Below are positions 1 through 60,850 of a stretch of 64,000 nt of DNA, piece by piece. The notes below the pieces were generated by a model that was not told the DNA's origin, made no database searches, and saw only the letters and a list, made by a program, of their open reading frames with translations. The DNA lies in the NCBI GenBank assembly GCA_020696385.1, contig JAEHCQ010000005.1, positions 40,311-104,310 on the forward strand, read 5' to 3'. Made by a program: the position numbers and the translations under genes. This DNA is from Methanobacteriota archaeon (lineage in GTDB: Archaea; Thermoplasmatota; Thermoplasmata; SG8-5; JAGLSY01). The first letter of the stretch is position 1; every line of letters begins with the position of its first letter.

Positions 1-228
1 AGCCATAAGGATGCTTTCAAAGGTGATGGCTCCCTCAAGGTGGACATTAAGGACAATAGCGCACTGATAACAATGAAGAACACTGCGATAAGCAAATATT
101 CCTGCCTGGCCTGGAGAGGATGTTTTATCGGCGCACTGGAGATGACGAACACAACCGGCACTGTAATAGAAAAGCAGTGCCAGCTAAAAGATGCGGACCA
201 TTGCGAATTTATTATGGAATGGTCCTAG
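1..228 (+). CDS. V4R-like (DUF2378/TIGR02265-like) protein, C-terminal part; start lies upstream of the window
   Basis: Frame 1 is open from base 1 and ends ...WRGCFIGALEM...EKQCQLKDADHCEFIMEWS, a V4R-type C-x6-C tail. Confidence 0.6.
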   Translation, partial: SHKDAFKGDGSLKVDIKDNSALITMKNTAISKYSCLAWRGCFIGALEMTNTTGTVIEKQCQLKDADHCEFIMEWS

Positions 229-413
229 CCACTGCAAATTTGTCATAGAGTGGGTCTGACCATTGCGAATTTATTATGGAATGGTCCTAGCCACTGCAAA
301 TTTGTCATAGAGTGGGTCTGACCATTGCGAATTTATTATGGAATGGTCCTAGCCACTGCAAATTTGTCATAGAGTGGGTCTGACCATTGCGAATTTATTA
401 TGGAATGGTCCTA
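196..413 (+). repeat. Perfect 62-bp tandem repeat (3.5 units) made of two alternating versions of the gene's C-terminal codons
   Basis: Units start at 196, 258, 320, 382. Half A encodes DHCEFIMEWS*, half B encodes HCKFVIEWV*. Confidence 0.95.
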
Positions 414-423
414 AAAAGCCAAA

Positions 424-502
424 CAAATTAATTTTATACACTACCACCATCCCGTCCCATGAATGTAATTGACCTTGTAGCCGAGCTTGTTTCTATACCC
501 AG
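424..502 (+). repeat. Orphan copy of the M20 peptidase promoter and 5' end
   Basis: 456-502 is identical to 798-844 (47 bp). 424-443 matches 766-785 at 16/20 with the same 342-bp offset. Confidence 0.95.
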
Positions 503-513
503 AGCACACCCAC

Positions 514-727
514 TTTTTTCTTTTAAACCTCGCTGTGCTGGATCGGGCTCCTAAATCAAGCCCATTTCATGTGCTTGATAAAATAGATGCGTGGACTTTG
601 TCCACATCTAAAAAAGAAAAAAGACGGACAAATTAAATCAAGCCAGCTGACTTGATCAAAATAAATGCGTGGGTTCAGTAGGTGAAGTCGCATTTAAAAA
701 GAAAGTCGCCCGACCCTGCTCACTCGG
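514..727 (-). mobile_element. Putative non-autonomous structured mini-element: outer stem plus two internal double-hairpin modules
   Basis: Ends align with 59921-60008. Internal modules 552-620 and 634-704 match 18514-18593 on the opposite strand. Lies between the duplicated gene starts. Confidence 0.6.
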
Positions 728-800
728 TATTGATTGAACCGTAGATTAGTAAATGAGTAAATAAGCAAAATAATTCTATATCCTAGTGCTATTCAACCCC

Positions 801-1877
801 ATGAATGTAATTGACCTTGTAGCCGAGCTTGTTTCTATACCCAGTACACTTGGAAAGACCACGGATATCGAGAACTTCGTGGCTGGCCAGTTATCCGCAA
901 TTATCGATACAGAGTTCATCGAGGTCCCGGGCAAGGGCAGGTGCGTGCTTGCCCGTTCTATCGCGGATGATAAAAAGCCGACCATAATCTTCAATGGGCA
1001 TCTGGATACTGTCGAGGTGTGCAATGGGTGGACAAAGGATCCCTTCAAGCCAGTGATCGAAGGCGATAAGATGTTCGGCCTAGGAACCGCTGACATGAAA
1101 GGCGGAGTGGCAGTTGCCATGCTGGCATTTCAAGAAGCTGTAAGAAGAGGCATCAATGCGATATTTGTCGGGACCATTGATGAGGAAGGAGATTCGGCGG
1201 GTGGCTTTGCTATCAAGGATCTGGGACTAAAAGCAGATCTGTGCCTGATAACAGAACCCAGCAATGAGAAGATAATGCAGGGCTGTCGCGGCAGGTACGT
1301 GGTGGATGTGAACGTGAGCGGAAAGAGCGCTCACGGAGCTGTGCCCGAGAAAGGGGTCAATGCGATCACAGAGGCTGGCCGCCTGCTCTCCAGATTGGAT
1401 GAGTTACCCCTAATTCATCATGATGTTCTGGGAAAGGGTTCCGTATGCCCACTCAGCGTGGGTGGAGGAACCACCACATTATCGGTTCCGGAAGAATGCC
1501 GCATTGTCATCGACAGGCATGTTGTCCCAGGCGAGACAAAGGAAAGTGTGATGCAGGACATACGCAACCTGGCTGGGAAGATAGACAGCCAGGCGACATT
1601 CGATGTGGCACTGAACCAGGAAAGACCCACACCTTTCCTGGAGCCATATATCACGCAGGATGATGAATTGACGCGCCGATTCATCAGCACAGTCAAAGGC
1701 GATATCGCCTACGGGAAGTCAGTAGGCGATTACAATATATTTGCCACCATGTGCCCCACGATAGTCCATGGGCCAGTAGGGGAGAATTGGCATTCACCAG
1801 ATGAGTGGGTGTCTATTTCTTCAATAGAAAGATGTCTGGAGAACTACATGAGATTCCTTGATGCTTTCAAGGTCTAA
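801..1877 (+). CDS. M20/ArgE/DapE-family metallopeptidase or deacylase
   Basis: FNGHLDTV, GLGTADMKGG, DEEG, GKSAHG and ENWHSPDEWV motifs. Confidence 0.9.
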   Translation: MNVIDLVAELVSIPSTLGKTTDIENFVAGQLSAIIDTEFIEVPGKGRCVLARSIADDKKPTIIFNGHLDTVEVCNGWTKDPFKPVIEGDKMFGLGTADMKGGVAVAMLAFQEAVRRGINAIFVGTIDEEGDSAGGFAIKDLGLKADLCLITEPSNEKIMQGCRGRYVVDVNVSGKSAHGAVPEKGVNAITEAGRLLSRLDELPLIHHDVLGKGSVCPLSVGGGTTTLSVPEECRIVIDRHVVPGETKESVMQDIRNLAGKIDSQATFDVALNQERPTPFLEPYITQDDELTRRFISTVKGDIAYGKSVGDYNIFATMCPTIVHGPVGENWHSPDEWVSISSIERCLENYMRFLDAFKV

Positions 1878-2029
1878 TATCTCACATTAATCGTATATCA
1901 CCATAGACTAACATATGGCTAACATATGATAGAATTTACCTATATATCATATATATGAAGATATATTCAATATATTAAGTAGATACATTTATCTATTAAT
2001 TGTCATTCAACCACCAGATAGGTGCTAAT

Positions 2030-2263
2030 ATGAAAGCGTTCAAAGCAACCGGAACCTTCCTTATGGGCAGAGACACTCAACCATTCAGTAAAGAGGTCGC
2101 TGCCAAAGACAAGGAAGATGCAGAGGAACAGGTATACTCGATCATGGGAAGCAAGCATGGTGTCAAGAGGTTCAGGATCGATATAGATAAGATCGTACCC
2201 CTGAAGCAAGAGGACATCACGGATTCCGTGATAGCTTACAAGACAAGCAAGGGTGAACAATGA
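2030..2263 (+). CDS. rpl18a: 50S ribosomal protein L18Ae (eL20/LX)
   Basis: F.KEV.A...A.E.VYS.MGSKHGVKR..I.I motif; conserved rpl18a-pfdA-ftsY order. Confidence 0.9.
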   Translation: MKAFKATGTFLMGRDTQPFSKEVAAKDKEDAEEQVYSIMGSKHGVKRFRIDIDKIVPLKQEDITDSVIAYKTSKGEQ

Positions 2264-2679
2264 ATGAAGAAGAGATCCAGCAGGCCAGTGCTCAATTAGA
2301 GAGCTACAGGGGCCAAATGGAACAAATGAAGCAGCAGAACGAGCTTCTCAAGAACCTCAATGATGAGTACATGAGAGCACGTGACACCCTTCTGGACCTC
2401 AGCAAGAGATCGCCTGATGACGAGATACTGGTACCCATTGGCGGCAATTATTTTATCTTCGCCAAGGTGGATAAACCCGATAAGGCCATTGGAAGCCTGG
2501 GAATGAACCTGGCCGCAGAAGAGAGCACGGAAAAAGCAGTCGAGAGACTGGACAAGAGGATAGCCGAGCTCAGTGATGCGGGAACCAAGATGGCCCAGTC
2601 AATGCAGGATATGGATGCCAGGTCCACGGAGCTTACCAATAAGCTCCAGGAAGAATACGCCAAGGGCAATGTACAGTAA
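2260..2679 (+). CDS. pfdA: Prefoldin subunit alpha
   Basis: Coiled coils flanking EILVPIGGNYFI; synteny. Confidence 0.9.
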   Translation: MNEEEIQQASAQLESYRGQMEQMKQQNELLKNLNDEYMRARDTLLDLSKRSPDDEILVPIGGNYFIFAKVDKPDKAIGSLGMNLAAEESTEKAVERLDKRIAELSDAGTKMAQSMQDMDARSTELTNKLQEEYAKGNVQ

Positions 2680-2693
2680 GCTTGGTATTTGCC

Positions 2694-3623
2694 ATGTTCA
2701 AATTCCTTAAGGATAAGCTGGAAGGGTTCAAAAAACAGACAAAGGAAGAATTCTCAGCAGAGGCTATATCGGAAGATGACGGCAAGCGCATAAAAGAAAG
2801 CAAGCTGGACGATATACTCTGGGATCTGGAAGTGGGGCTTCTTGAATCTGATGTGGCTATCGAGGTCATTGAGGAGCTCAAGGAGAACCTGAAGGTGGAT
2901 CTCATCAATAAGCGAGTGAAAAGAGGTTCTGATTTTGAAAAGTCTATCAATGAAAGTCTGAAAGCCTCGCTCACCAAGATACTGGACACCGAGACAATTG
3001 ATTTTGATGAGTTCATCAACACCCATGAAAAACCAGTTACATTGATGTTCGTCGGAGTGAACGGAACTGGTAAGACCACTTCCATTGCAAGGATCGCCCA
3101 CAGACTGAAGAAACAGGGGAAATCCTGTGTACTGGCAGCGGCCGACACATTCAGAGCTGGGGCCATAGAGCAATTGACAATTCATTCGGAAAATCTGGGA
3201 TTCAAGATAATAAAACATCAATCGGGTGGAGACCCGGCTGCGGTTGCCTATGATGCAGTTGCGCATGCCAAGGCCAGGTTCCGGGATGTCGTTCTCATAG
3301 ACACGGCCGGCAGGATGCAGACGAACTCCAACCTGATGGATGAGATGAAAAAGATCAATAGGGTTGTCGAGCCAGACATGGTGATATTCGTTGGTGACTC
3401 ACTAGCAGGAAATGACGCAGTGGAGCAGGCCAGGAAGTTCGAAGAGGCTATCGGATTGGATGCGGCCATACTTACGAAAATAGATGCGGACGCGAAGGGC
3501 GGAGCTGCATTATCGATCGCACATGCGGTTGGCAAGCCAATAATATTCGTGGGAACTGGCCAGGAATATGAGGACCTGGAAAAGTTCGATGCTCAATGGA
3601 TGATCGATAAGATCTTTGGATAG
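2694..3623 (+). CDS. ftsY: SRP receptor FtsY
   Basis: GVNGTGKTT, DTFRAGA, DTAGR, TKIDADAKGG, GTGQ motifs. Confidence 0.97.
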   Translation: MFKFLKDKLEGFKKQTKEEFSAEAISEDDGKRIKESKLDDILWDLEVGLLESDVAIEVIEELKENLKVDLINKRVKRGSDFEKSINESLKASLTKILDTETIDFDEFINTHEKPVTLMFVGVNGTGKTTSIARIAHRLKKQGKSCVLAAADTFRAGAIEQLTIHSENLGFKIIKHQSGGDPAAVAYDAVAHAKARFRDVVLIDTAGRMQTNSNLMDEMKKINRVVEPDMVIFVGDSLAGNDAVEQARKFEEAIGLDAAILTKIDADAKGGAALSIAHAVGKPIIFVGTGQEYEDLEKFDAQWMIDKIFG

Positions 3624-3626
3624 ATC

Positions 3627-6600
3627 TTAATTTTTAAATTTCTTAATGTTTATAAGATACATTTCCTCAGTCAAATTACCATCTTTGTAAGCCATCTCTA
3701 TTTTATCTATGATCTCTTGATTAGGATGAGGTGGCTCAGGCTCAATTGCCAGATCATCAGCACAGATCGGGCATTGTAGGCCTGGATCGATCAGGAAACC
3801 ACAAACTGGGCAGATATTTTCGACCTCAGTTGCTTGTTCTTCGTATAGATCATCTTCAGATGATACATCTTCATCAAATGAGGCGTCATCTTCGACAGGT
3901 CCATCATCTTTATTTTTACGAACAAATAGGAATGCCAGGAACAATAATATAATGAGCCAGATCAACATCCCGATGTATATCATCGGGTCTTGGTCCTTTG
4001 ACACATATTCCTCTACCCCATCTTCTGTTTCATCCAGGGGAGCAGGGTCAAATTCATCGAGTACTCCGTCATTGTCATCATCAGTGTCTTCATTGTTACC
4101 AATGCCATCCCCATCAGTATCTATTGATTCATCAGCATCAAATGGGAAAACATCATCAATATCTGGAACTCCATCATTGTCATCATCAGGGTCATCCACA
4201 TCAAGTATACCATCTCGATCATTATCTCCATGAACAACAATGATCTCAATTGTCGAGTTTATATTACCGGAATAATCTTCGACCGTGAAAGTGATACGAT
4301 AAGTTCCAGGGTCTTCAAAGATATATGATATATCATTTTGATAATTATCCAGATGACCTGGATAATCAATTGACCAATAACTATTTGCAATTCCAATATT
4401 GTCTGTTGAATTTGATCCCCAGAGATATGTTGTTTCTCCTTCGATCGTCTCTCTAGGAACATTAATGTCAATATTTGGCTTGGTTGTATCAACTACAAAA
4501 AATAGATCTGCATTCATCGGAGGGGATTCTTGATTGCCAGATATATCCTCTGCGATAGAATAGAATTGATACCAACCATCATTTGGTGCATTGGCCTCAA
4601 CATCATAATAATATGAAGGCGTATAGTTCCATTTTGCATATGTGAAATTATTATGCTCATATTTCCAGTCAGACCAGGTTATATTATCCGCACTGTACCT
4701 TGACCATAGGCTTATGCTCTCATAATAATAATGTACGGCATAAGAATAATTGATATTGACCATTGTGTTCTGCAAACCACTTGTTGAATCAGTAGCACTC
4801 CAAGAAAAATATAGATCCCCAAGATCATGCCAGAAATCTTCTTGAAAGGATAGCTTAGACACAGGATCTGAAGTATCAATACAAAGAGATATGGGTGGTT
4901 CAGAAGGGGATTCTTCATAATTCCCTACTACATCACGTGCTACAGAATATAATTGATAGAAGCCATCATTACTTGGCATTTTAAAAGACCAACTACCATT
5001 ATTTTCCTCCGCATACCTATGTGAAAAATAATCAGTCCATGTTAGATTGTCAGAGCTACGCCTATAATAAATATTAATTTGATCCAATCCAGTCAAATTA
5101 TCATGAGCATCGATTGATAGATTAAATGAACCATTGTTATGATAATATGGTACAGGAATTATCTCTGAGCTTGGATTCAGGGTATCACGAATAGTCTTTG
5201 TCTCTGAACTATTTTTACATATCTCAAAATTCCCATAATTGTCCTCAGATAAAGAATAGAACTCATAATATCCATCACCTTCAGGGAAGTCAAAAAGCCA
5301 ATTCCATTGTGAGATAGAATCCTCATTATATTGTTTCCAGGGAGTCCATGTAATATTAAATGAGCTATGGCGATACCATAATGTAACATTCTTAAGGCCA
5401 AATCCATCCAGATCCTCTGCGGTAGAATTTATAAGTTCAGACTGAGAGTTAATATATCTGGGAATCGATCGTAAAGATGATGTTGGTTTGATATGATCGT
5501 GAACTGGGTTCATCAGTGAATAATTATCACTACTAAATGCGGGATAAGAATCGATATCATATCCCGAATCACCGAATCCATCTGAACCGGATATATTCTG
5601 ACCCGGACCAGACATCAGATCTAAGCCATCATAGTCCGACCAGTAATTTCCCCCGATCGGGTATATGTTATTCCAATAATTTGTTGAATAATAATCATAG
5701 GCACCATAATTATTATCTAAAAATGAATTATGATAGACCATGTTCCAATCTGAATGAGAGAACATTAAGCCTCGAAAGTTATTCCATATTGTATTGTTGA
5801 TTATAAAATTATTAAAACAATCATATAAATATATCCCATAATATCCATAATTATATGGATACCCATTCCCATGTATCAAATTATTAGATATGGATGAATT
5901 TCTCGTACTTTCCATGCATATCCCATAATATTCATTTTCTATCGTATTGTTTTGTATTGTAATATTATTCGAATAACCAGCTAATATCCCACAGGATCCA
6001 TCCATTAATGTGAAGTTCTGAATGATCGAATCTGAACAATTCGCTAAAATGATCTGACCTGCATCAGATGGTATATTAACATCAGTTTGGTTTTTAAGAT
6101 AATATATTGGCAACCCATTGATAGTATTATTGATGAATGAATGAGTATTCCAATCCAATATAATATCATTATACCAGTATCTAATCATGATTCCAGTATT
6201 TATCAGAACATTGTCTTGGATCAGTATATATTTATTGCCGCGGATACCTATACCGACATCATAGTTATCTATTGAATTATTTATTATACTATTATTATTC
6301 CCCGGTTTCATAGTGATTCCAGTATCCCTTGTTCCAGAAAAGATATTGTTCTGTATTATGTTTCTATCACCCTGGCCTTCGATGGAGGTTTCCATAAAAA
6401 GGTTATTTTCAATTACATTATCATTACCAGTGAATGAGACACCTCGATAACTATTATGAGCGATCTGGTTATTTACCACAGTATTATTATTCCCAGTAAT
6501 AATCACTGCGTCCTCTTGATCATAGAGCTTATTATCAAATATCATAAAATTATCTGAGTTGAAAAGTTGAATTCCATTGGAACAATTCTCAATTACAATA

Positions 6601-7484
6601 TCATTGATCTGACCATTTGTACAGAATCCTAGAATGATGCTGCCGTATGTCTCTGTAAAAGTATAATTGGAGAGCACGACATTCTTGCAATCTGCATATA
6701 TTATCTGGCCTGGACCAGTTACATAAGGAGGGGTGTTAGTGTTCTTGAAATAATATATCGGCAACCCTTGAACTAAATTTGTGGTGTAAATATAATGAGT
6801 ATCCCATTCTTCGACTAAGGTTCCATAGATATGAATTCCATTGCTAAGGATATTACCTGAAAATGTATTGTGTTGGGATCGCAACATACGGATATCATCC
6901 CAATTGTTGATACTCCACCAATAGGGAGAAATATGAGTCTCAATCTGATTATTGATGATCAAATTGTAATTGCTTCCATCTAGGAACAATCCATAATATA
7001 CCGAACTAATTTGATTGTTTTCAATAAGGTTATGATCTGAATGAACAGATAGATATATCCCTCTGCTGCAATTATGGATAATATTATTGATAATATCACC
7101 ATAATCAGTATTCCATAGTTGAATCCCAGCAGCTTCCCAATATAATCCACTCCAATTAGAATAAGGAAACATCAATGTACAATTTCGGATAATGAAGTTA
7201 TCTGTCACGTTCCCCAAGTAAATGCAGGGTCCAAAAATGGTTCCATTGATCTCCCAGTTCTCGATCACCCAGGGATTGCCAGCACTCCCATTCCCACTAG
7301 ATACTCCATTAGCAAGGGTAAAATCAGCATTTGAATTTATTCGGATCTCACCGCGAGGTGTAGTTGTAATCACATATGTAGACACATCCTTGGCTTCCGT
7401 ATTATTAGCATTTGGTTCGGTAAATAATATGATGGAACTAAATATCAATAGTACCGATAGCCAAACAGTAAATGCCTTTCTCAT
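3627..7484 (-). CDS. Large membrane-anchored surface protein: NosD/CASH beta-helix repeats, Ig/PKD-like domains, TSP3-like Ca-binding repeats, TM helix, cytoplasmic zinc ribbon
   Basis: Signal peptide, NNxI repeats, GGNYWSDY, DxDxDG repeats, TM, CPVCG..CPIC; visibly AT-rich. Confidence 0.8.
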   Translation of the reverse strand: MRKAFTVWLSVLLIFSSIILFTEPNANNTEAKDVSTYVITTTPRGEIRINSNADFTLANGVSSGNGSAGNPWVIENWEINGTIFGPCIYLGNVTDNFIIRNCTLMFPYSNWSGLYWEAAGIQLWNTDYGDIINNIIHNCSRGIYLSVHSDHNLIENNQISSVYYGLFLDGSNYNLIINNQIETHISPYWWSINNWDDIRMLRSQHNTFSGNILSNGIHIYGTLVEEWDTHYIYTTNLVQGLPIYYFKNTNTPPYVTGPGQIIYADCKNVVLSNYTFTETYGSIILGFCTNGQINDIVIENCSNGIQLFNSDNFMIFDNKLYDQEDAVIITGNNNTVVNNQIAHNSYRGVSFTGNDNVIENNLFMETSIEGQGDRNIIQNNIFSGTRDTGITMKPGNNNSIINNSIDNYDVGIGIRGNKYILIQDNVLINTGIMIRYWYNDIILDWNTHSFINNTINGLPIYYLKNQTDVNIPSDAGQIILANCSDSIIQNFTLMDGSCGILAGYSNNITIQNNTIENEYYGICMESTRNSSISNNLIHGNGYPYNYGYYGIYLYDCFNNFIINNTIWNNFRGLMFSHSDWNMVYHNSFLDNNYGAYDYYSTNYWNNIYPIGGNYWSDYDGLDLMSGPGQNISGSDGFGDSGYDIDSYPAFSSDNYSLMNPVHDHIKPTSSLRSIPRYINSQSELINSTAEDLDGFGLKNVTLWYRHSSFNITWTPWKQYNEDSISQWNWLFDFPEGDGYYEFYSLSEDNYGNFEICKNSSETKTIRDTLNPSSEIIPVPYYHNNGSFNLSIDAHDNLTGLDQINIYYRRSSDNLTWTDYFSHRYAEENNGSWSFKMPSNDGFYQLYSVARDVVGNYEESPSEPPISLCIDTSDPVSKLSFQEDFWHDLGDLYFSWSATDSTSGLQNTMVNINYSYAVHYYYESISLWSRYSADNITWSDWKYEHNNFTYAKWNYTPSYYYDVEANAPNDGWYQFYSIAEDISGNQESPPMNADLFFVVDTTKPNIDINVPRETIEGETTYLWGSNSTDNIGIANSYWSIDYPGHLDNYQNDISYIFEDPGTYRITFTVEDYSGNINSTIEIIVVHGDNDRDGILDVDDPDDDNDGVPDIDDVFPFDADESIDTDGDGIGNNEDTDDDNDGVLDEFDPAPLDETEDGVEEYVSKDQDPMIYIGMLIWLIILLFLAFLFVRKNKDDGPVEDDASFDEDVSSEDDLYEEQATEVENICPVCGFLIDPGLQCPICADDLAIEPEPPHPNQEIIDKIEMAYKDGNLTEEMYLINIKKFKN

Positions 7485-7555
7485 CTTCCTCTTCCTCAGC
7501 CTAGTTTAAGAGTTTAGAGTATTTTAGGGTTGTGGAATATAAGAAAAGAAATAAG

Positions 7556-7829
7556 ATGCGGGGAACCGTGTGAACGATATGCCCTTGGCATGATGTTCAC
7601 ATCGTAGGCCATAAACCCAATTCTCGAAGCTTACGTCTTGCTTCGAGTCCAGATGAAACATAATGGTGGGTTTACGGCAACCGTTTACTACTTTCGAATC
7701 CTATAATGAAAAATGCGGGGAACCGGATTTCGCACCTACACTTCATTGCGGTGCTCTCTCGAATTTACAAGTAAATTCTCGATCGAACTTCGTTCGAATC
7801 CTATAATGAAAAATGCGGGGAACCGGATT
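7556..7829 (-). repeat. Two extra copies of the tRNA-Leu 3' end separated by hairpin-rich inserts
   Basis: 37-bp repeat 7693-7729 = 7793-7829; 13-bp copy at 7556-7568; several inverted repeats between them. Confidence 0.9.
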
Positions 7830-7897
7830 CGAACCGGCGAATCACTAAGAACTAGACCCTGAATCTAGCGCCGTTGACCAGGCTTGGCTATCCCCGC
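7814..7897 (-). tRNA. tRNA-Leu(CAG)
   Basis: GCGGGGA/TCCCCGC acceptor stem, CTAGA-TTCAGGG-TCTAG anticodon arm, long variable arm, GGTTCGAATCC T-arm; CCA not encoded. Confidence 0.95.
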
Positions 7898-8007
7898 ATG
7901 GTGTTATGGATAAGCCCTGTAAATTCAAGAGGTTTATAAAATCTTTGATTGGATTGTATAATTTTCCGCCGATATCCTTATATCATGAAATTATCATGCC
8001 GAATACA

Positions 8008-9039: not shown

Positions 9040-9130
9040 TCTTTTATTGTTATACAAAACTCTGTACCAATTTCCTTATATAATTGAATTTACAATATAT
9101 TCATTTAATAACATTGTGGGAGATGAGTTC

Positions 9131-9496: not shown

Positions 9497-9560
9497 ACTA
9501 CCTACAAAATAAATTGTACATACAAATAGTTTAATATACACTTGTGTCTGGTCACTATCA

Positions 9561-10267: not shown

Positions 10268-10280
<13 letters not shown>
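9561..10280 (+). CDS. ribB: 3,4-dihydroxy-2-butanone-4-phosphate synthase
   Basis: YDADGREEETD, TGITDKDR, GHTE, ICEM motifs. Confidence 0.95.
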
Positions 10281-11223
<943 letters not shown>

Positions 11224-11719: not shown

Positions 11720-11730
11720 ACAATAGGAAA

Positions 11731-18423: not shown

Positions 18424-18498
18424 GGGCGCGTAGCCTAGCCAGGATATGGCGCTAGCCTTCTAAGCTAGAAGCCAGGGGTTCGAATCCCCTCGCGTCCG
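18424..18498 (+). tRNA. tRNA-Arg(TCT)
   Basis: GGGCGCG/CGCGTCC acceptor stem, CTAGC-CTTCTAA-GCTAG anticodon arm, GGTTCGAATCC T-arm. Confidence 0.95.
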
Positions 18499-18503
18499 CT
18501 CTT

Positions 18504-18725
18504 TTATTTTTTTAAGATGCGACTTTATCATTTGATCCCACGCATCTTTTTTATCAAACAAATTTGTAAAAGATTCAGGTAATGAGTTTGATTCGATATG
18601 TTTAGAGGACGCGAGGTGGATGAGAACGGAGTTCGACGAGATTTTTCTGAATATAATGAAGAAAAAGCGAGCAAGACCTGGATGCTGAAAGCAGACAGGT
18701 TGCTGATCCCCTCGCGTCCGCTCTT
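18504..18725 (+). mobile_element. Structured insert downstream of tRNA-Arg, ending in a copy of the tRNA 3' end
   Basis: 18706-18725 = 18484-18503; inverted copy at 18607-18621; modules shared with 634-704 and 7725-7801. Confidence 0.6.
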
Positions 18726-24341: not shown

Positions 24342-24452
24342 TCAGTAACGAGCCAGCGCCCTGGATCCACATTCGGGACATTTGCCCATGCCACTGATGT
24401 ATTCCTTCCAATTATTGCGCATCCATGTATGTTTACATTTTAGACATTTCAT
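24342..24452 (-). CDS. 36-aa zinc-ribbon microprotein (below the ORF-track cutoff)
   Basis: MKCLKCKHTWMRNNWKEYISGMGKCPECGSRALARY*; TATA-like TTATATA upstream. Confidence 0.7.
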   Translation of the reverse strand: MKCLKCKHTWMRNNWKEYISGMGKCPECGSRALARY

Positions 24453-24517
24453 AGTATCATATTCAAAGTTATGTATATTCTTATATATAAGGATGGCTTG
24501 GGAATTCCCAGATGTAC

Positions 24518-24596
24518 CCACTGATGTATTCCTTCCAATTATTGCGCATCCATGTGTGTTTACATTTTAGACATTTCATAGTATCATATTCAAAGT
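24518..24596 (-). repeat. Orphan 5'-end copy of the zinc-ribbon microprotein gene
   Basis: 79 bp matching 24391-24469 with one synonymous mismatch (CAC/CAT). Confidence 0.95.
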
Positions 24597-49763: not shown

Positions 49764-49805
49764 GTCAAAGGGAAATAATGCCTGCTCGAAAATGGAGATG
49801 TCATT

Positions 49806-50246: not shown

Positions 50247-50335
50247 TTTATATCAACTATAATGTTCGATTCATAGACATCATAAAAGAGCATATCAGCC
50301 CAAATATTATTAAGCAAAATGCCAATGGTCTTCCA

Positions 50336-52159: not shown

Positions 52160-52254
52160 TAATATACATCATGTGCATCATATGCATCATATATCTACAC
52201 AATAAACGAAAACTTTAATATCAACAATAATATTCATCCAATTGGAAATGCCAA

Positions 52255-52932: not shown

Positions 52933-53147
52933 AGATATCGATTATGCCAGACAGCAAAAAATCATTAAATAACATCACTCATTAATAATTGTTAAACGAC
53001 GTTACGATTGTTCGAAGGTTGTACCAAACCGTATATAAACACCGGGTATCATATAGTTGATTAGAGGCTTTTATCTATTATTCTGCCCACATAATAGAGC
53101 CCCTTCGCGGGGTAGCCTCCTCCATTCTCCTTTATTCAAGGTGTACT

Positions 53148-54194: not shown

Positions 54195-54809
54195 GGCCTC
54201 AGCCAGATCCTCTTTATTGGGTCTACCATGCTTGCAATACAACCGTACTACATCCCTAGCTAGAGCCATAGCTCCAGGTCGGAATAGCATATGGGATGTT
54301 ACCTTTATCTTGTAAATATATAATTTGTACTTGCCGATCTCCAGATCCCCATAGACCCTGAACTCATCGTCTGGATCGGCATAAAAAGCCTCGGCCTTGG
54401 TAGTGCGCCCGAGATTGATGGATACCTTGACAAGAAGTTCATTGAAATATCTCGTCCAGAGAGTGCTGATATCCTCGACAAGAGCTTTATTCTTCCTCTT
54501 GTCATCGACCTCGATGCTCATGACCTGGATGCAAGTATCGCCGATCATGATCTCATCCCCTATCCTGAGCTCATGGCCAATCGGAAGCTCCACGGTGGTC
54601 TTTGTGGATTCCTCGAGCCTGCTGATGATAGTTCGAATTGACACCAACTTGGGGATCTCCACATCCAGATCAAAGCCCTTCTCACACTTCGAGCATTTGA
54701 GAACGGCCTTAACTATGTGCTTGCCAGACATTCTGCTCTTGATAACTCTACAGATAGATTCCTCGCCGCAGAAAGTGCATTTGGCATACAGGGATGATGG
54801 TATCTCCAT
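54135..54809 (-). CDS. HVO_0476-like zinc-finger protein
   Basis: CTFC...CSKC followed by duplicated beta domains; TLW motif. Confidence 0.7.
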   Translation of the reverse strand: MEIPSSLYAKCTFCGEESICRVIKSRMSGKHIVKAVLKCSKCEKGFDLDVEIPKLVSIRTIISRLEESTKTTVELPIGHELRIGDEIMIGDTCIQVMSIEVDDKRKNKALVEDISTLWTRYFNELLVKVSINLGRTTKAEAFYADPDDEFRVYGDLEIGKYKLYIYKIKVTSHMLFRPGAMALARDVVRLYCKHGRPNKEDLAEASISVVDQGNGGDAHHRKRR

Positions 54810-54847
54810 GTTACGGGTGATTCGAAAGGGGTTTAAAATGGCTTCTA

Positions 54848-55489
54848 TCACTCAAGGCTCTTTAATATCTCCATCGCCGCAGCCTTTGGGTCCTCAGCAT
54901 TGTAGATACTCCTTCCCACAATTATGAAATCCGCTCCCGCGTCGATTGTTGCCTTGGCAGATCCACCCTGAGCCCCAACTCCCGGGCTCAGTATCAGAAG
55001 ATCTTCGACGATAACACGCAACTGGCTGATCCTTTCTGGCCTGGTAGCTGGCGCTATTATTCCGGTCGCTCCAACATCGAAGGCTCGCCTTGCCATGACA
55101 TCCGCCACTGGTTTTATGAACCACTTCGCACCTGGATGGCTCATCTCGGCCACCACATAAACGTCTATTCCATCCGCGGCCTTGATACAGGCTTCCATTG
55201 AATCCATGCCAACAAATGCATGGATTATAACTCCACTGGCTCCTGCCTTGACCACTTGCTCCACTATCAGACGGCTGGTATTGTCAATATCCGCGATTTT
55301 GAAGTCGCAGATAACGGGCCCAAACTTTGCTATCTCGGTAACGATCTCCATCCCACAGCTGAGTACCAGAGGATAATTGATCTTGTAGGCATCCACCATT
55401 CCTTCCAGATTGGCAGCTACCTTCAAGGCTTTCTCTCTCTCCAGCATATCCATGGCGACTATCAGTCTTGTGCGTGGTGTCAGGGTCAT
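54848..55489 (-). CDS. pyrF: Orotidine-5'-phosphate decarboxylase
   Basis: DFKIADI, MSHPG, PGVGAQGG, VGRSI motifs. Confidence 0.95.
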   Translation of the reverse strand: MTLTPRTRLIVAMDMLEREKALKVAANLEGMVDAYKINYPLVLSCGMEIVTEIAKFGPVICDFKIADIDNTSRLIVEQVVKAGASGVIIHAFVGMDSMEACIKAADGIDVYVVAEMSHPGAKWFIKPVADVMARRAFDVGATGIIAPATRPERISQLRVIVEDLLILSPGVGAQGGSAKATIDAGADFIIVGRSIYNAEDPKAAAMEILKSLE

Positions 55490-55595
55490 GCCAGAGCATA
55501 ATGTGAGAAAGATATAAAGATTTACGGTTTGCCACGATATCACTCAGGCAAAAGGTTTTTTATCCCGCCCTGTATTGAGGGCTTCGATGACCATA

Positions 55596-56861
55596 ATGGC
55601 AGAGGCGAAATCCGGCATCACCGACCTCATCAGGCAGGTGGCCGCGGACGAGAAGATGGACCCAGAAAAATTGCGCAGGGCAGTAGCGGCTGGCTACGTT
55701 GTTATTCCCAATAACCCCATACACAACCCCATTCCAAAAGGTATCGGAGAAGGGTGCAGCATCAAGGTGAATGTGAACCTTGGCACATCCGAGGATTGTA
55801 TGGATGTGGAAGAGGAGCTGGAGAAAGCTCGAGTCGCAATGAAATTCGGAGCAGATGCCATCATGGATCTGAGCACCGGAGGAGATGTGGATGCGATCCG
55901 CGCCCGCATCATGAAAGAAGTTAATATTCCGATCGGAACGGTTCCGATTTACCAGGCGGGATTGGAGATGGCCAGGAAATGCTCTGTCGTGGATATGACA
56001 GAGGATATGATCTTCAATGGCATCGAGAAGCATGCGAAGGACGGCGTGGACTTCATGACGGTTCACACGGGCATAACCAAGGAAAGCATAGGCCGATTGA
56101 AGAAATGCGGCCGACTTACAGACATAGTCAGCCGTGGCGGCTCCTTCCTGACAGCGTGGATACTTGCCAATGACATGGAGAACCCCCTTTACGAGAATTT
56201 CGATTATCTACTGGAACTGGCTCAGAAATACGAGTTCACCCTCAGCCTGGGAGATGGGCTGAGGCCAGGCAGTATTGCTGATGCGACCGATGGTCCTCAG
56301 CTCCAAGAGCTCATCATCCTGGGCGAGTGCGTCCAGAGAGCCCGCGAGGCAAATGTACAGACAATGGTTGAAGGCCCTGGTCATGTCCCGCTCAATCAAA
56401 TAGAGGCAAATATGATCATCGAGAAGACCATATGCAAGAACGCACCCTTCTATGTTCTGGGCCCGTTGGTAACAGATATCGCACCCGGATACGACCACAT
56501 CGTGGGAGCGATCGGGGGCGCACTGGCTGCCTACCATGGCGCGGATTTCCTGTGCTATGTGACTCCTGCTGAACATCTATGTCTTCCAAATGTTGAGGAT
56601 GTCAAGATCGGAACTATCACCAGTAAGATAGCGGCTCACGCGGCCGATGTCGCGAAAGGTCGCGGTATGGAGCGCGATAATGCAATATCTCAGGGCAGGA
56701 AGGATCTTGATTGGGAAGCGATCTACAAGAATTCCATCGATCCAGAGCATGCTCGCAAGAGGCGCGGAGACAGAGAGCCAGGAGAAGAGGATGTCTGCTC
56801 GATGTGTGGGGAATATTGTGCGATTAAATTGATCAAAGAACATATGGATGATGAAATTTAA
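55596..56861 (+). CDS. thiC: Phosphomethylpyrimidine synthase (ThiC family)
   Basis: MDLSTGG, GTVPIYQ, SRGGS, EGPGHVP, PGYDH, CSMCGEYC motifs; a Bza-type paralog is not excluded. Confidence 0.88.
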   Translation: MAEAKSGITDLIRQVAADEKMDPEKLRRAVAAGYVVIPNNPIHNPIPKGIGEGCSIKVNVNLGTSEDCMDVEEELEKARVAMKFGADAIMDLSTGGDVDAIRARIMKEVNIPIGTVPIYQAGLEMARKCSVVDMTEDMIFNGIEKHAKDGVDFMTVHTGITKESIGRLKKCGRLTDIVSRGGSFLTAWILANDMENPLYENFDYLLELAQKYEFTLSLGDGLRPGSIADATDGPQLQELIILGECVQRAREANVQTMVEGPGHVPLNQIEANMIIEKTICKNAPFYVLGPLVTDIAPGYDHIVGAIGGALAAYHGADFLCYVTPAEHLCLPNVEDVKIGTITSKIAAHAADVAKGRGMERDNAISQGRKDLDWEAIYKNSIDPEHARKRRGDREPGEEDVCSMCGEYCAIKLIKEHMDDEI

Positions 56862-56900
56862 TCGAACAATATTGAGCTTGTTGCAAAGCAACATGCTCCC

Positions 56901-56948
56901 TATTGTGCAATTAAGCTGATAAAGGAACATATGGATGAAGATAAATAG
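56901..56948 (+). repeat. Orphan alternative 3' tail of thiC after a hairpin
   Basis: YCAIKLIKEHMDEDK* versus YCAIKLIKEHMDDEI* (56814-56861); hairpin at 56874-56898. Confidence 0.92.
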
Positions 56949-57098
56949 ATAGCCTGGCTGTAATATTATAATATAATAATATAAATGCAATTATATTAGA
57001 GTTTTATATTAAAACAAATATATTGACATAAAAATATTATATTGTATATAAATATAATGTGTATGCATATAATTATCAAATAAGTATTAACAATAAAA

Positions 57099-58130
57099 TC
57101 ATCCAGTGATGATCTTCAGATATTCGCCTTCCGTCATCATATCTATGCCATCAACTATTATCGAACACTTCAACATCAACAGATCGATATGATGGTGGCA
57201 TGACCATGTGGCGCCTGTCTTCTCGTGGTATGGATCTCCAAAGGCCACATGTATCGTTGGCAACTTCTCATCCTGAAGGATATTACCAACTATCTTCTCA
57301 AGGAATATATTGGTGCCTATGCCAAGCTCTCCAACCCTGGATGCACATGGCTCGCTATTGATGTACTTTGTGAAATCCTCAAGAAGTTCCTTGTTCTCAC
57401 ACTCGCAATAGGTGACATATGATCCACCATCCCGGGTCTCGACATCTATGATCAAAGGAGTCTCGGAGAAATCAACGATCTCATTGTATTTCTCGCCAAG
57501 CCAGTCACCAACCGTACCATCGACCACAAGTCTACCCTCAAGGGTAAGTGGAGCCGTGAATACCTCACCGGATGGGAGATTATCCCATTCTCCGGTCTTG
57601 GTGACCACGCCGGAGCATGGTATCCATTTCATTGAAGGATCCAGCCTTGCAATGAAGTCCGTACCTGCAGGTGATGTGACGCGTATCTCATCCGCATCCT
57701 TCACCATCCTGTAGACATTTTCAGTGATCTTCTGGACCACTTCATAATCAACACACATGCCGGATTCCATTATTTCATTGGAAACACCGACCATGTGCGC
57801 ATGTCGTGCTTTGGCCTTTATAAGTTTTAAGAAGGGTTCCCTGAGTGTTGCCAATTCCCCTTCACGGGCACCAGCAACGAAAAAAGTGACGGTTGCCTTC
57901 AATATTGCCTCTCTAAGTCCGTCTGGCATCTGTTTAAGAGGGCGGCCTCCATAAGATGGTAGGTCCACATTGAAAAATCTGACATGGTTGGTTATCTCGA
58001 GAGATGCCTTTCTGAGCGCGATACCAATATCCTTACTATCCTCGTCAGCAACTATAAGGACATAATCCTCTGGCTTCACGACCATACACTTTTCGACAGC
58101 GATCTTTGCACCTTGCTCAATAGGAACCAT
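57099..58130 (-). CDS. M29-like thermophilic aminopeptidase
   Basis: GTD, NLPSGEVF, GELGIGTN, DEK..TIHVAFG, HID motifs. Confidence 0.85.
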   Translation of the reverse strand: MVPIEQGAKIAVEKCMVVKPEDYVLIVADEDSKDIGIALRKASLEITNHVRFFNVDLPSYGGRPLKQMPDGLREAILKATVTFFVAGAREGELATLREPFLKLIKAKARHAHMVGVSNEIMESGMCVDYEVVQKITENVYRMVKDADEIRVTSPAGTDFIARLDPSMKWIPCSGVVTKTGEWDNLPSGEVFTAPLTLEGRLVVDGTVGDWLGEKYNEIVDFSETPLIIDVETRDGGSYVTYCECENKELLEDFTKYINSEPCASRVGELGIGTNIFLEKIVGNILQDEKLPTIHVAFGDPYHEKTGATWSCHHHIDLLMLKCSIIVDGIDMMTEGEYLKIITG

Positions 58131-58269
58131 CAGTCTTCCGTAAAATGGAACTAATATATAACACTTCCACCAAACAATTTTATAGTCGCCAGGCATAAAT
58201 AATAATATTAACAATATTAAGGAATATGGGATAATTTTAAATCGTTTTCCGGGATGTACAATTGATATT

Positions 58270-58641
58270 ATGCCACCACTTGGATTGATGACCTATGGAT
58301 ATGACGAAGGATCTGCAAAGAACGTCCAGAGCATGCTGGAAGCCATGCTGGGCTCAGAAATTGTGATCATCGGGGCATCGAATAAGGATGATACACTCGT
58401 CAGCCAGATACTGGAAGAAGGTCCGAATTCATCCACTTTTGAAGATCATCAGAATAAGATGTTGATGCTCCTTGGATTCGATGATGAGCAGGTCAAGATA
58501 CTATTGAAGAATTTCCCAAAAAAGGAGCGGCCTATATTTTGTGGGTTGACCGATGAGAACATCAAATGGGATATGAAATATTTGATGAAGCATCTTCTGG
58601 AAGAAAAGAAATACTGGGAATCGCAGGGAAAGCGCAACTGA
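58270..58641 (+). CDS. DUF3783-like protein
   Basis: PIFCGLT..N.KW...L..EE motif. Confidence 0.7.
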   Translation: MPPLGLMTYGYDEGSAKNVQSMLEAMLGSEIVIIGASNKDDTLVSQILEEGPNSSTFEDHQNKMLMLLGFDDEQVKILLKNFPKKERPIFCGLTDENIKWDMKYLMKHLLEEKKYWESQGKRN

Positions 58642-58702
58642 TCGAACTGATCGGTAATGAATTTCAACTCATCCGTTCCAGGCCTATTTTTCAGACAATG
58701 GC

Positions 58703-59557
58703 TTATTCAATAGGCAGAGTTTCTTCAGGATCCTCAGGCGGTTGGCCAACCGCTTGTGGCTGTTGCGGTTGTTGTGGCTGCTGCGGTTGGGCTGGTTGAA
58801 TGGGTTGAGTAGGTTGATCAGGTCTTTGATACATCGGCTGCTGGTATGCTTGCGGGTTAACAGGTTGTTGTGCCATGGGCGGATGCATGGGTTGAAGCGG
58901 GTGCGCCTGCTGCTTTTCCTTTTTCTTTCGGTCATTGTATATCGCGATGACAACAATAACGACCAGTATCAGAAGACCGATACCTCCCATGATCACCAAT
59001 CCATCCACAAGACCATCAAAGGGATCGTCCAACCAAAAATCTGCATTTGCATATTCAAAGGTCATATCCACTACAACCACACCCACAGAGTTTGCATCAT
59101 CAGGGGTGATAGCACAATTTCGATTGTCAATGATTATGAATATCGCATCATCAGGCATATCGTAATAATTCTCCGAGGTCTCAAACTCATAATTTATACG
59201 AACACGGGACACATCTTCCACGGATCCTGGCTTGTATGATATCGCTCTTGGCTCGGTATCATTATCAGAAGGTGAATAATCCCCATAATAGTATGTGGAA
59301 TATGGGTAAGCATTATCTACCTGATTATAGGACATGACATAAACATCGATATTTCCCCCATCGGTCACTGTTATATTGATCCATACTTCGCCATATTCCC
59401 AGGCATCATACGGGCCAGCCACATAGAAGCTATCATCACCGATGTAAATGGTATCTCCTTCAACTGGCTGGGCGGATGAATTACCAGATATTACAATACC
59501 TATTGAAGCACTTATTATCAAAGCAAGCACGATATAACTATAAATTCTTCCCTTCAT
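58703..59557 (-). CDS. Single-pass membrane protein with Pro/Gln-rich cytoplasmic tail
   Basis: Signal peptide, TM helix, (QQP)n low-complexity tail. Confidence 0.7.
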   Translation of the reverse strand: MKGRIYSYIVLALIISASIGIVISGNSSAQPVEGDTIYIGDDSFYVAGPYDAWEYGEVWINITVTDGGNIDVYVMSYNQVDNAYPYSTYYYGDYSPSDNDTEPRAISYKPGSVEDVSRVRINYEFETSENYYDMPDDAIFIIIDNRNCAITPDDANSVGVVVVDMTFEYANADFWLDDPFDGLVDGLVIMGGIGLLILVVIVVIAIYNDRKKKEKQQAHPLQPMHPPMAQQPVNPQAYQQPMYQRPDQPTQPIQPAQPQQPQQPQQPQAVGQPPEDPEETLPIE

Positions 59558-59691
59558 GAAGGAATATCACATAATAGAGATATAAGCCTTTGGAATAAAT
59601 GGGAATAACCTGAATATAGGCAAATGATGGATCTGAAAACTCAGCTCGGTTAAACCATCGGCCAGCTCCATGAAATTATGTTCGGGATTGC

Positions 59692-59915
59692 TTAGAATTT
59701 CTTAGATATCTCGTCCAGCACACTCTCGAATATAGCCATTCCATCCCCGAGTCCAGTTGGGAATGCTCTTGTCCAGTCCGGGTGCATTTCCCTGTCCATA
59801 ACTCTCTCCGGGTGCGGCATCATTCCAAACACATTACCCTGCGGATTACAGATACCAGCCACATTCTTTTCGGAGCCATTTGGATTCCAGAGATACCCGG
59901 CATAACTTCCATCGG
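59692..59915 (-). pseudogene. Orphan allelic copy of the purQ 3' end (224 bp)
   Basis: Colinear with 60017-60240; mostly synonymous differences; YPWN changed to YLWN. Confidence 0.92.
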
Positions 59916-59920
59916 AAGCC

Positions 59921-60008
59921 TTTTCTTTTATCCTCGCTGTGCTGGCCGGGCTCCAAAAGAACAAGTATTCCATTGCAAAAGAAAACTCGCCCGGCGCTGC
60001 TCGCTCGG
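59921..60008 (-). mobile_element. Minimal version of the structured mini-element
   Basis: TTTTCTTTTA-CCTCGCTGTGCTGG..CGGGCTCC ... AAAAGAAA..TCGCCCG..CTGCTC.CTCGG shared with 514-727. Confidence 0.6.
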
Positions 60009-60016
60009 AGATCTAC

Positions 60017-60850
60017 TCAGAATCTTTTCGATATCTCGTCCAGCACACTCTCGAATATAGCCATTCCATCCCCGAGTCCAGTTGGGAATGCTCTTGTCCA
60101 ATCTGGATGCATTTCACGATCCATAACTCTCTCAGGGTGCGGCATCATACCAAACACATTACCCCGTGGATTACAGATGCCAGCCACATTCTTTTCTGAG
60201 CCATTTGGATTCCAGGGATACCCGGCATAACTGCCATCGGGATCGACATATGAGAATACAAGCATGTCTTTCTCAGCCAGCTTTTTGTAAGCGATATCAA
60301 CTTCCGCTGAAGGGAAGATAAGCTTCCCTTCAGCGTGAGCAGATGGACACATCAGAACATCGCCCTCTGGTATCTTGGAAGTGAACATGCAATTACCCTT
60401 GTTCTCATGCTTCAGAAGTGTTGGTCGGCATTCGAATCTGGAAGAATCATTGGTAGTCAAAACTGCCTGAGGAACATCGGCCATTATCTCATCGAAGCCA
60501 GGTAGCAGACCCAGTTCGACCAATACCTGGAAGCCATTGCAGATCCCAAGGACAGCCTTTCCTTCATTCACAAAGGCTTTCAGATCATCCTTCAATCCAG
60601 CCTTCATACGAGCTGCCCATATAGCACCAGCACGAACATAATCACCGGATGAAAAGCCACCAGGGATCATCAGAATATGATAATCAGCCAAGCTTCTCTT
60701 CTCATCATCAGTGACATCCTGGCCGAGAAACTGTTTAAGGTGCACGATCTCTGGTTGTGCGCCCAGTCTCTTGAATGCCTGGAATGACTCCTGCTCGCAA
60801 TTGGTTCCCTCTATCCTCAGAACGCAGACTTTGATATCCTCGATGTTCAT
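60017..60850 (-). CDS. purQ: Phosphoribosylformylglycinamidine synthase subunit PurQ
   Basis: GTNC, PGGFS.GD, GICNGFQ, AHAEG, NPNGS, MMPHPER motifs. Confidence 0.96.
   Translation of the reverse strand: MNIEDIKVCVLRIEGTNCEQESFQAFKRLGAQPEIVHLKQFLGQDVTDDEKRSLADYHILMIPGGFSSGDYVRAGAIWAARMKAGLKDDLKAFVNEGKAVLGICNGFQVLVELGLLPGFDEIMADVPQAVLTTNDSSRFECRPTLLKHENKGNCMFTSKIPEGDVLMCPSAHAEGKLIFPSAEVDIAYKKLAEKDMLVFSYVDPDGSYAGYPWNPNGSEKNVAGICNPRGNVFGMMPHPERVMDREMHPDWTRAFPTGLGDGMAIFESVLDEISKRF

Follow-up and report, generated by a model that had tools for sequence, protein, structure and literature searches.

Small hairpin repeats are common in bacteria, and the way in which they move is poorly understood. 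Transposons of the IS200/IS605 family insert without target duplication. Homology-facilitated illegitimate recombination, known from transformable bacteria, combines a homologous anchor with a junction at little or no homology. For the transposase TnpA, the part of PMC6006769 consulted here describes binding to subterminal hairpins and selection of the cleavage site via a guide tetranucleotide; it assigns the Y1 proteins of archaea to the IS200-type subclass only. As far as the available portion of a preprint goes, no REPINs have been found in archaea. In this work we analyzed a stretch of 64,000 nucleotides (nt) of archaeal DNA (the window, C46:40311-104310 of G000, a 2.28 Mb genome in 50 contigs that is 94% complete) in which the ends of seven genes are duplicated. 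We describe family E, a short structured repeat which at most of its loci in this genome lies between two copies of a gene end, one belonging to an intact gene and the other a displaced fragment, termed the orphan. All genomes used in this study are metagenome-assembled.

Structure of family E and its flanking repeats

Profiles of E for nhmmer were built from 18 copies, and modules were counted at an E-value <=1. The census of G000 comprises 48 5' modules and 41 3' modules, which gave 39 paired elements and 4 unpaired 5' modules. Canonical copies measure 92-97 nt, and copies of 142-218 nt hold extra hairpins, called H2, in the loop. In an alignment of 21 copies the element consists of the motif GGAAGCC, a T-tract, an interrupted 16-bp hairpin and a conserved 3' end (CTGCTCGCTCGG), in this order. 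GGAAGCC is preceded by a C-rich leader of 0-14 nt. The foot of the hairpin lies 18 nt downstream of the E 5' boundary, and the loop has 37 nt. The sequence of the inner stem varies while its pairing is kept: 11 of the 16 pairs of the hairpin were changed on both sides in the alignment. This covariation was reached by 0 of 500 shuffles, and controls in which the alignment was slid came out at roughly half or lower. One G-T pair occurs without exception (21/21), another in 10/21 copies, and these pairs favor the fold on the E strand over that on the complement. T-tracts are present on both strands of E, which lies between genes. The variable inner stem was also considered as a target-matching guide and rejected, with one 6-nt match at purQ and none at the other loci inspected. 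Rfam matches of the window at the gathering score were two tRNAs only. In permissive Rfam scans of three insert regions the best non-tRNA match reached 18.7 bits against a cut-off of 42.5.

To characterize the surroundings of E, 400 nt to the left of its 5' end were aligned with 400 nt to the right of its 3' end. A locus passed with a score >=17 and a left copy ending <=12 nt from the E 5' end. This was the case for 29 of the 39 paired copies, several of which fall in three tandem arrays. Mismatched flank pairs (n=229) scored a median of 9, with a 95th percentile of 12 and a maximum of 67 that came from related loci. The flanking repeats are thus more frequent than expected by chance. They are 17-314 bp long and 76-100% identical. 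The orphan copy adjoins the 5' end of E, and the copy at the 3' side continues into the intact gene. In 18/29 loci the orphan ends <=2 nt from the start of GGAAGCC; at ten loci there are 3-9 extra nucleotides, mostly readable as the C-rich leader, and at one locus the repeat runs 5 nt into E. The right copy begins between 5 nt inside the E 3' end and 55 nt beyond it in 28/29 loci, the exception being C33:26112, where it is 330 nt distant. An open reading frame (ORF) of >=100 aa runs from the right copy into the right flank at 21/29 loci (18 right-only, 3 also continuing to the left). A left-continuing ORF is present at 6 loci, 3 of them left-only (120-170 aa) with the frame extending across or into E, and at 5/29 loci an ORF is found in neither direction.

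Orphan and live copy could be compared in the frame of the live gene in 21 rows, 15 of which belong to 3'-end loci. In 15/21 rows the host gene is on the strand opposite to E, with its stop codon beside the E 3' end; in 6/21 rows it is on the same strand, with its start or promoter beside the E 3' end. The outer edge of the repeat is often only 0-2 nt from the stop codon. At C11:577127 this is because the native spacer between two convergent genes has only 3 nt, and compact intergenic space may be the general reason. The preliminary description of the window had predicted that copies are flanked by diverged direct repeats with a fixed polarity, which is what we found at these 29 loci. It had also given this polarity as functional copy, element, orphan at the four loci with linked inserts, for sense and antisense host genes alike. 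Here the fixed direction stands relative to the element, and the reading along the gene does not. The order is always orphan, E from 5' to 3', functional copy, so that along the gene it reads functional copy, E, orphan for 3' ends and orphan, E, functional copy for 5' ends such as that of the M20 peptidase gene. As a general rule, an older E to the left of every orphan was considered and discarded, being significant at only ~6-8/29 loci.

The differences between orphan and live copies are mainly synonymous. The ratio of synonymous to non-synonymous differences is 94:43 in all 21 rows, 69:24 in the 15 rows of 3'-end loci and 68:9 in the 12 rows with an ORF >=250 aa, which comprise 10 rows of 3'-end loci and two layers of an array at a HypF-like gene. 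Outside this long-ORF set are short ORFs (C11:530640, C22:311301, C44:99361, C2:13613, C2:12399, C50:1551) and same-strand 5'-end rows (C46:162747, C46:40820, which is the M20 row, and C11:662803). In the M20 and C11:662803 rows the stop-to-stop frame counted promoter bases as codons. A random change in these codons would be synonymous 21% of the time, and according to our own calculation neutral decay of the orphan together with purifying selection on the live copy predicts ~34-38% synonymous differences. Nine loci in other genomes gave 20:4; ten more repeat-bearing loci have no long ORF in the DNA taken. Only one stop codon occurs in the orphans of the 21 rows, in the C50 row, where the 314-bp repeat is mostly tRNA and spacer. 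The synonymous excess argues that the copies diverged as working alleles and not by decay of a target duplication. Judged by these comparisons, the repeats that flank E appear to be two diverged alleles of one gene end rather than target-site duplications. A homologous gene end from another lineage had been proposed from the window, and the copies do differ like alleles under protein-level selection, as predicted.

E was found in five out of five relatives tested first with a covariance model. When covariance model R1 of E was run on 151 genomes sampled from the class, E was present in 32, including families f1 (4/4), f2 (2/2), f3 (1/2), f4 (9/9), f6 (5/5), f12 (7/7), f15 (2/2) and f19 (1/1). 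It was not found with the covariance model in f7, f9, f11, f13, f18 and f20 of this sample. The records that carry E are labelled as Thermoplasmata, Methanomassiliicoccales or Methanobacteriota metagenome-assembled genomes. The idea of a modular family that lacks cargo and reaches many unrelated genes is borne out by this distribution and by the 39 paired copies in G000. In other assemblies the repeat geometry was seen at 18-19 of 29 unique loci, with three further loci whose flanks are too short; by family it was seen at 7/11 loci in f6, 2/9 in f12 and 0/6 in f15 (null 95th percentile 14.5). A search for the E pattern on viral contigs gave 0 matches.

G000 and G002 share orthologous E copies at three loci; at a fourth (L048) G000 holds a partial E. 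A comparison of filled and empty sites yielded one clear pair, L063, which is filled in G002 and empty in G000 (C11:358528-358632). At L063 the junction falls in 8 nt that the gene and the E 5' end have in common. Other junctions, read by eye, share 0-3 nt with the recurrent leader. As a separate observation, C11:77841-78376, the G000 counterpart of L048, is 97.5-98.7% identical to it, the genes of the two species being otherwise ~85% identical, and 56 nt of the E copy of G002 are missing in G000. This region could be a recent transfer or very conserved. At window positions 54836-54866 (C46:95146-95176) the spacer has ~24-30 nt, and the corresponding locus of the congener G001 (L054) has 240 nt with an E copy. 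The latter has no adjacent repeat and a weak 15-nt repeat 50 nt away.

Tandem arrays of E are located at C47:27148-27599, C11:530545-530815 and C2:12205-12603. At the HypF locus (C47:27055-27683) the first 47 coding bases of the HypF-like gene are present as three alleles in tandem. Each orphan is followed by E with the same junction, and the orphans are identical over 20 nt beside E and diverge farther out, a mosaic that fits crossovers inside the repeats. An additional E of another subfamily is inserted between units of this array.

Duplicated gene ends in the window and further repeat families

The loci of the window were checked by self-BLAST, Tandem Repeats Finder and direct reading of the sequence, and copies of the inserts were sought by BLAST against the whole G000 genome. 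Self-BLAST and sequence reading confirmed all seven duplicated gene ends at the places given in the preliminary description. The inserts between the copies are 39-260 bp long with no ORF inside, as read from the sequence of these loci. The features are listed below in window coordinates.

196-413 (+): tail of the V4R gene with a tandem array, 62-bp unit x3.5, 100% identical
421-513 (+): M20 orphan, comprising the promoter region and first 58 coding bases of the peptidase gene; abuts the E 5' end
510-727 (+): composite E at M20; nhmmer matches C46:40826-40865 and C46:40998-41037, BLAST matches to other copies
~516-555 (+): E 5' module of the M20 element
~556-705 (+): H2 hairpins in the loop of the M20 element
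~696-727 (+): E 3' module of the M20 element
728-762 (+): spacer from the E 3' end to the functional M20 copy
763-1877 (+): functional M20 peptidase gene, own promoter region included; repeat copy 763-855; Pfam match clear
7687-7729 (-): orphan 3' end of tRNA-Leu(CAG) with trailer
7730-7786 (-): F2-type insert at tRNA-Leu; F2-profile nhmmer match C46:48018-48113
7787-7898 (-): functional tRNA-Leu(CAG) with trailer; tRNA 7813-7898, repeat copy 7787-7829
18424-18499 (+): functional tRNA-Arg(TCT)
18509-18600 (-): H2 hairpins at tRNA-Arg, inverted relative to H2 inside the M20 element; 80% over 50 bp to 634-704
18601-18699 (+): F2 at tRNA-Arg; 5' end repeats the tRNA 3' end in inverted orientation
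18700-18724 (+): orphan 3' end of tRNA-Arg with trailer
24343-24469 (-): functional small zinc-ribbon gene; repeat copy 24391-24469
24470-24517 (-): zinc-ribbon insert of 48 bp with two short palindromes and a TATA-like stretch; fold z 0.01
24518-24596 (-): orphan zinc-ribbon 5' end; one difference, synonymous
56814-56861 (+): functional thiC tail; Pfam ThiC clear
56862-56900 (+): thiC hairpin insert of 39 bp; fold z -5.2
56901-56947 (+): orphan thiC tail with its own stop codon, read from the sequence
59691-59915 (-): purQ-type orphan, last 74 codons and stop; frame open
59914-60008 (+): canonical E at purQ, 95 nt; covariance model match C46:100214-100323
60009-60015 (+): spacer of 7 nt from the E 3' end to the stop codon of the live purQ-type gene
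60016-60850 (-): functional purQ-type gene (GATase_5, Pfam clear); repeat copy 60016-60240

E is present at two of these loci. At M20 the two 5' ends (421-513 and 763-855) are 84% identical over 82 bp by BLAST, and their coding parts are identical up to positions 513/855. At purQ the two tails (59691-59915 and 60016-60240) are 92% identical over 225 bp, with 15 synonymous and 3 non-synonymous differences. Both tRNA loci contain a second family, F2. The copies of the tRNA-Leu end (7687-7729 and 7787-7829) are 95% identical over 43 bp, and a further, older orphan of the acceptor end lies at ~7556-7568. The copies of the tRNA-Arg 3' end are found at 18479-18503 and 18700-18724. The zinc-ribbon 5' ends (24391-24469 and 24518-24596) are 98.7% identical over 79 bp; the protein has 37 aa and a Pfam score below the curated cut-off. 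The thiC tails (56814-56854 and 56901-56941) are 85% identical over 41 bp, the orphan showing five synonymous differences in the conserved part and a change of the last three residues. In the V4R array each unit encodes two C-terminal tails as in-frame alternatives, each closed by a stop codon of its own. There is no insert between the copies, and by BLAST the unit has no other copy in the genome. The partial V4R protein scores 19.5 bits with Pfam V4R, below the curated cut-off.

The three links between insert modules that had been noticed in the window were all seen again by BLAST: 514-727 with 59921-60008, which is family E; 634-704 with ~18509-18557 in inverted orientation, which is the nested hairpin module H2; and 7725-7801 with 18618-18709, both of which match C46:20357-20423 and represent F2. 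A single family over all loci of the window, as first suggested, was not recovered. E occurs at M20 and purQ only, the tRNAs carry F2 (at tRNA-Arg also H2), the V4R array has no insert, and for the thiC and zinc-ribbon inserts the BLAST search of the genome gave no further copy. Since thiC, zinc-ribbon and V4R resemble the allele-type duplications and have no E, duplication of gene ends is not strictly dependent on E. E is its commonest and most regular partner.

F2 has six copies in G000, all situated just downstream of a tRNA gene: 18601-18724 and 7708-7803 in the window, C46:20367-20470, C48:33056-33163, C22:282710-282816 and C22:261486-261590. Five of them were picked downstream of tRNAs and used to build the profile; the sixth was found blind and is also linked to a tRNA. 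Behind every copy (6/6) lies an orphan tRNA 3' end. Part of the tRNA 3' end recurs, inverted, in the 5' end of F2, so that element and orphan can close a long helix, which for tRNA-Arg has a DNA fold of -29.5 kcal/mol (z -7.1). H2 is a pair of small hairpins at ~15 loci in G000, nested in E loops or standing alone, in either orientation. E itself also occurs at tRNA-Ser and tRNA-Phe.

Several further repeats and recombinase loci were noted in G000. At C46:8135-8396, outside the window, an array of ~39-nt repeats is broken by a string of N; a collapsed repeat and a CRISPR-like array are both conceivable. A strong GC-rich hairpin cluster unrelated to E is repeated several times at C22:327992-328331. 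At C11:60340-60881 a diverged direct repeat of 236 bp (87.7% identity) surrounds a 70-bp hairpin insert without E, possibly one more duplicated gene end. At the contig end C47:171707-172245 tRNA-Glu is directly followed by a tyrosine recombinase gene, a contig of 573 bp holds a variant tRNA-Glu with an orphan end, and two recombinase matches lie on contig C1 (30.7 kb, lower G+C). The loci on C47:171707-172245, C1 and C29 look like ordinary integrated elements.

Proposed origin of the E loci and candidate enzymes

From the observed anatomy, polarity, allele-like divergence, covariation and spread of E over assemblies and families we infer an order of events, an incoming copy and an agent for the 5' joining. 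We take E to be a structured, non-autonomous interspersed repeat belonging to an uncultured clade with the label Thermoplasmata/Methanomassiliicoccales. Its loci at gene ends would have arisen by a one-ended event between homologues, a proposal to which we give an even chance of being right. The event would involve an E-bearing and an E-less homologue of one gene, up to ~24% diverged. On the side of the gene the two DNAs would pair through their homology; at the opposite side E would be joined by its 5' end to a site inside the resident gene at no or very short homology. The product would consist of the resident flank, the resident gene end (now the orphan), E, the spacer, the incoming gene end and the gene. 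Later unequal recombination between the repeats could yield stacked arrays. The joining step could take two forms. An IS200-type HUH enzyme might nick single-stranded E and transfer its 5' end to the displaced strand. Alternatively, in an enzyme-free form, a polymerase that has just passed over both the hairpin and the T-tract, copying them, might switch to the other homologue at a short match, or the junction might be made by end joining. The facts behind this model are the one fairly sharp end of E, the lack of a common target motif, the junction homology of 0-8 nt, the diverged homologous second gene end at the opposite side, the single polarity and the stacked arrays. In a related form, which would make E the first archaeal counterpart of the REPIN type, a domesticated single-copy IS200-type HUH enzyme would nick single-stranded E at its 5' boundary and transfer that end into the displaced strand of the homologous gene, with the remainder of the incoming strand pairing by homology; E would so bring a replacement end and leave the resident end as a fossil. 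We consider this form possible and yet doubtful.

G000 has one Y1_Tnp HUH gene (C50:1965-2396), which encodes a TnpA of 143 aa. The protein is related to solved TnpA structures and matches the IS200/IS605 equivalog model with 119.5 bits, whereas the NCBIfam RAYT model gives 28.2 bits against a cut-off of 80. The gene is 54-80% identical across the order and its neighborhood is partly conserved, with a local inversion in G002. Pfam finds one Y1 match in G000 and one to three in the genomes of the order that have any. Orthologues (>=48% identity) occur only in f1-f4, f6 and f19, all of which bear E. Repeat-flanked E is frequent in the families with an orthologue and amounts to 2/15 loci in f12 and f15, which lack it. 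The single-copy IS200-type transposase is a weak candidate for the enzyme acting on E. G000 also has four tyrosine recombinase genes, lying away from the inserts; reverse transcriptase and TnpB were not found in this 94% complete genome. Independently of this, the Y1 gene itself has a duplicated end: at C50:1231-2396 (L079) its last 19 codons and tRNA-Phe are duplicated in a 314-bp repeat around E, and both tRNA-Phe copies are called as genes by ARAGORN.

A number of results weigh against the one-ended event or its enzymatic form. E persists in f12 and f15, where the tnpA orthologue is lacking. Proximity of E to a Y1/HUH gene, which would have linked the two, was seen within 3 kb in 1/12 genomes (G000 only), and the multi-copy relatives of Y1 in f6 have no adjoining E. 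The phyletic pattern that connects tnpA with E comes from few independent clades. The fold of a single E copy does not exceed shuffled sequence in stability (z 0.2 and 0.02 for the two strands), so that the structural case for E is a case from covariation. The inner repeat ends of the E loci show no evident conserved target motif. Seven repeats (17-52 bp) are 100% identical, for which an origin within one genome is equally possible. Remnants of an older E left of the orphan are present at ~6-8/29 loci and at L063, and these fit tandem duplication of a unit of E, spacer and gene end. For purQ, the comparison with three congeners is mixed. At one position the orphan has Leu against Pro in the live copy and in each of the three congeners, at another the live copy has Arg against Gln in the orphan and in each congener, and the remaining differences are synonymous. 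Identities to the congeners are 83.8/78.7/71.3% for the live copy and 79.2/77.1/70.9% for the orphan, which does not mark the orphan as the resident copy. A metagenome scan with the purQ-type protein for closer strains returned two loci at 50-52% only, too distant for empty-site comparisons or for telling donor from recipient alleles. Finally, every E junction comes from assemblies.

The duplications might instead have formed in place within one genome, by insertion of E or by tandem duplication of E, spacer and gene end through slippage at short homologies, with initially identical repeats; the live gene, its end included, would later have been overwritten by diverged alleles of the population through ordinary homologous recombination while the orphan stayed frozen. 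The continuum of repeat identity from 100% (the seven short repeats) to 76%, the older E remnants left of some orphans, the tandem arrays on C47, C11 and C2 and the HypF mosaic, compatible with crossovers inside repeats, are all in line with such a history. However, ~20/29 loci have no recognizable older E, and 69-88% of the differences are synonymous. By our own estimate neutral decay of the orphan contributes no more than about a tenth of them, and divergence reaches 15-24%. Very fast replacement of nearly every host gene by a strongly diverged allele would be demanded, and we regard this origin as unlikely. Somewhat more unlikely still appears a mini-circle of E, spacer and a captured gene end, excised and then inserted into the corresponding position of the same gene by a site-specific enzyme (TnpA or a tyrosine recombinase), of which only gene-restoring insertions would survive; this comes close to the preliminary description, in which the element brings the gene end by means of an enzyme encoded elsewhere. 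The anatomy does resemble the attL/attR arrangement of islands that restore tRNAs or gene ends, tRNA genes are frequent hosts (F2 6/6; E at tRNA-Ser and tRNA-Phe), the 5' boundary of E is fairly sharp (18/29 at <=2 nt) and lies 18 nt from the hairpin foot, and the genome holds a solo tnpA along with four tyrosine recombinase genes. But the inner junctions show no visible common core or target motif, the leaders are ragged, no E was found on viral contigs and no enzyme gene is linked to E. Transfer of circles of 150-450 nt between lineages is also hard to picture. For E copies without repeats, a BLAST search of the flanks, which is a weak test, gave other repeats and paralogues and no passenger gene-end fragments.

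Orphans and E could also be kept for a function, as a terminator or insulator cassette or as a store of swappable gene ends. The T-tracts on both strands, the position between genes, the orphan frames that are open save for the one stop in the C50 row and the two different tails in the V4R units would suit such a role. The hosts, in contrast, are housekeeping genes and tRNAs, the mostly synonymous copies bring no gain in protein variety, the 3'-end orphans have no start codon or promoter of their own, and the formation of the junctions is left unexplained. We judge this explanation improbable. An assembly artefact, by which strain mixtures in the metagenomes were stitched into false tandem alleles, is very improbable. 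All genomes are metagenome-assembled and the copies do resemble strain alleles, but a false path demands sequence shared by the gene interior and the E 5' end, and none was seen beyond the G000 junctions. Moreover, the polarity is uniform, the architecture recurs in other assemblies whose contig naming styles differ, and G000 and G002 share orthologous E copies.

If the coupling proposed in the one-ended model is true, a cargo-less element would invade essential genes and tRNAs harmlessly by bringing a replacement end, and its spread would be tied to homologous recombination between diverged lineages. Each E event leaves a built-in trace, the displaced gene end, which is an allele rather than debris. 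Stacked orphan ends would then be a readable record of DNA exchange between lineages of uncultured archaea and could serve as markers of it. In practice, E loci yield partial pseudogenes in gene calling and are mistakable for assembly errors.

Comparison with known systems

E resembles the REP/REPIN-RAYT system in being short (~100 nt), palindromic, extragenic, present in tens of copies and persistent across the order. The single-copy HUH Y1 gene, conserved and roughly syntenic in the same genomes, may be a further likeness, although f12 and f15 have E without an orthologue. In contrast to that system, this Y1 protein scores as IS200 and not as RAYT, and E does not flank the Y1 gene (1/12 genomes). 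No guide of the GTAG type was seen at the foot of the E hairpin in the alignments, and descriptions of REPINs do not mention long allele-like flanking repeats. With IS200/IS605 elements E shares a hairpin with a conserved 5' flank, a set spacing between the hairpin and the boundary 5' of it, a fold favored on one strand and the lack of terminal inverted repeats. Their hairpins, as given in the consulted part of PMC6006769, have 20-25 nt, whereas that of E has 16 bp and a 37-nt loop; G000 yielded no TnpB, and no target tetranucleotide is visible at E.

Integrase islands have in common with E a functional end beside the element, an orphan native end beyond it, a fixed polarity and tRNA hosts. 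The gene-restoring feature of tyrosine-integrase elements is found at E as well, where the copy at the 3' side continues into an intact ORF at 21/29 loci and the tRNA loci are alike. Unlike these islands, E has no cargo or integrase, uses dozens of different host genes, and has repeats of 17-314 bp whose length is specific to the gene and which are up to 24% diverged. MITEs (miniature inverted-repeat transposable elements) are small, non-coding, multi-copy, modular and non-autonomous as E is, but are flanked by short identical duplications in place of the long, variable, allele-like repeats of E. The two ends of E do not repeat one another in inverted form, and no related sequence flanks the Y1 gene, a comparison in which the transposase families were partly covered.

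Like homology-facilitated illegitimate recombination, the E loci pair one anchor with one junction of short homology. They differ from it in that the junction recurs at the same end of a repeat, in one polarity, at ~28 loci. A narrow literature search found no paper on an illegitimate junction that recurs at one end of a repeat family, and literature searches, with article supplements outside their scope, brought up no account of hairpin repeats with allele-like gene ends at their sides. Despite the single features it shares with them, E fails a defining feature of REP/REPIN elements, MITEs and gene-restoring islands alike; it is an interspersed repeat of the structured kind whose insertion signature is unreported.

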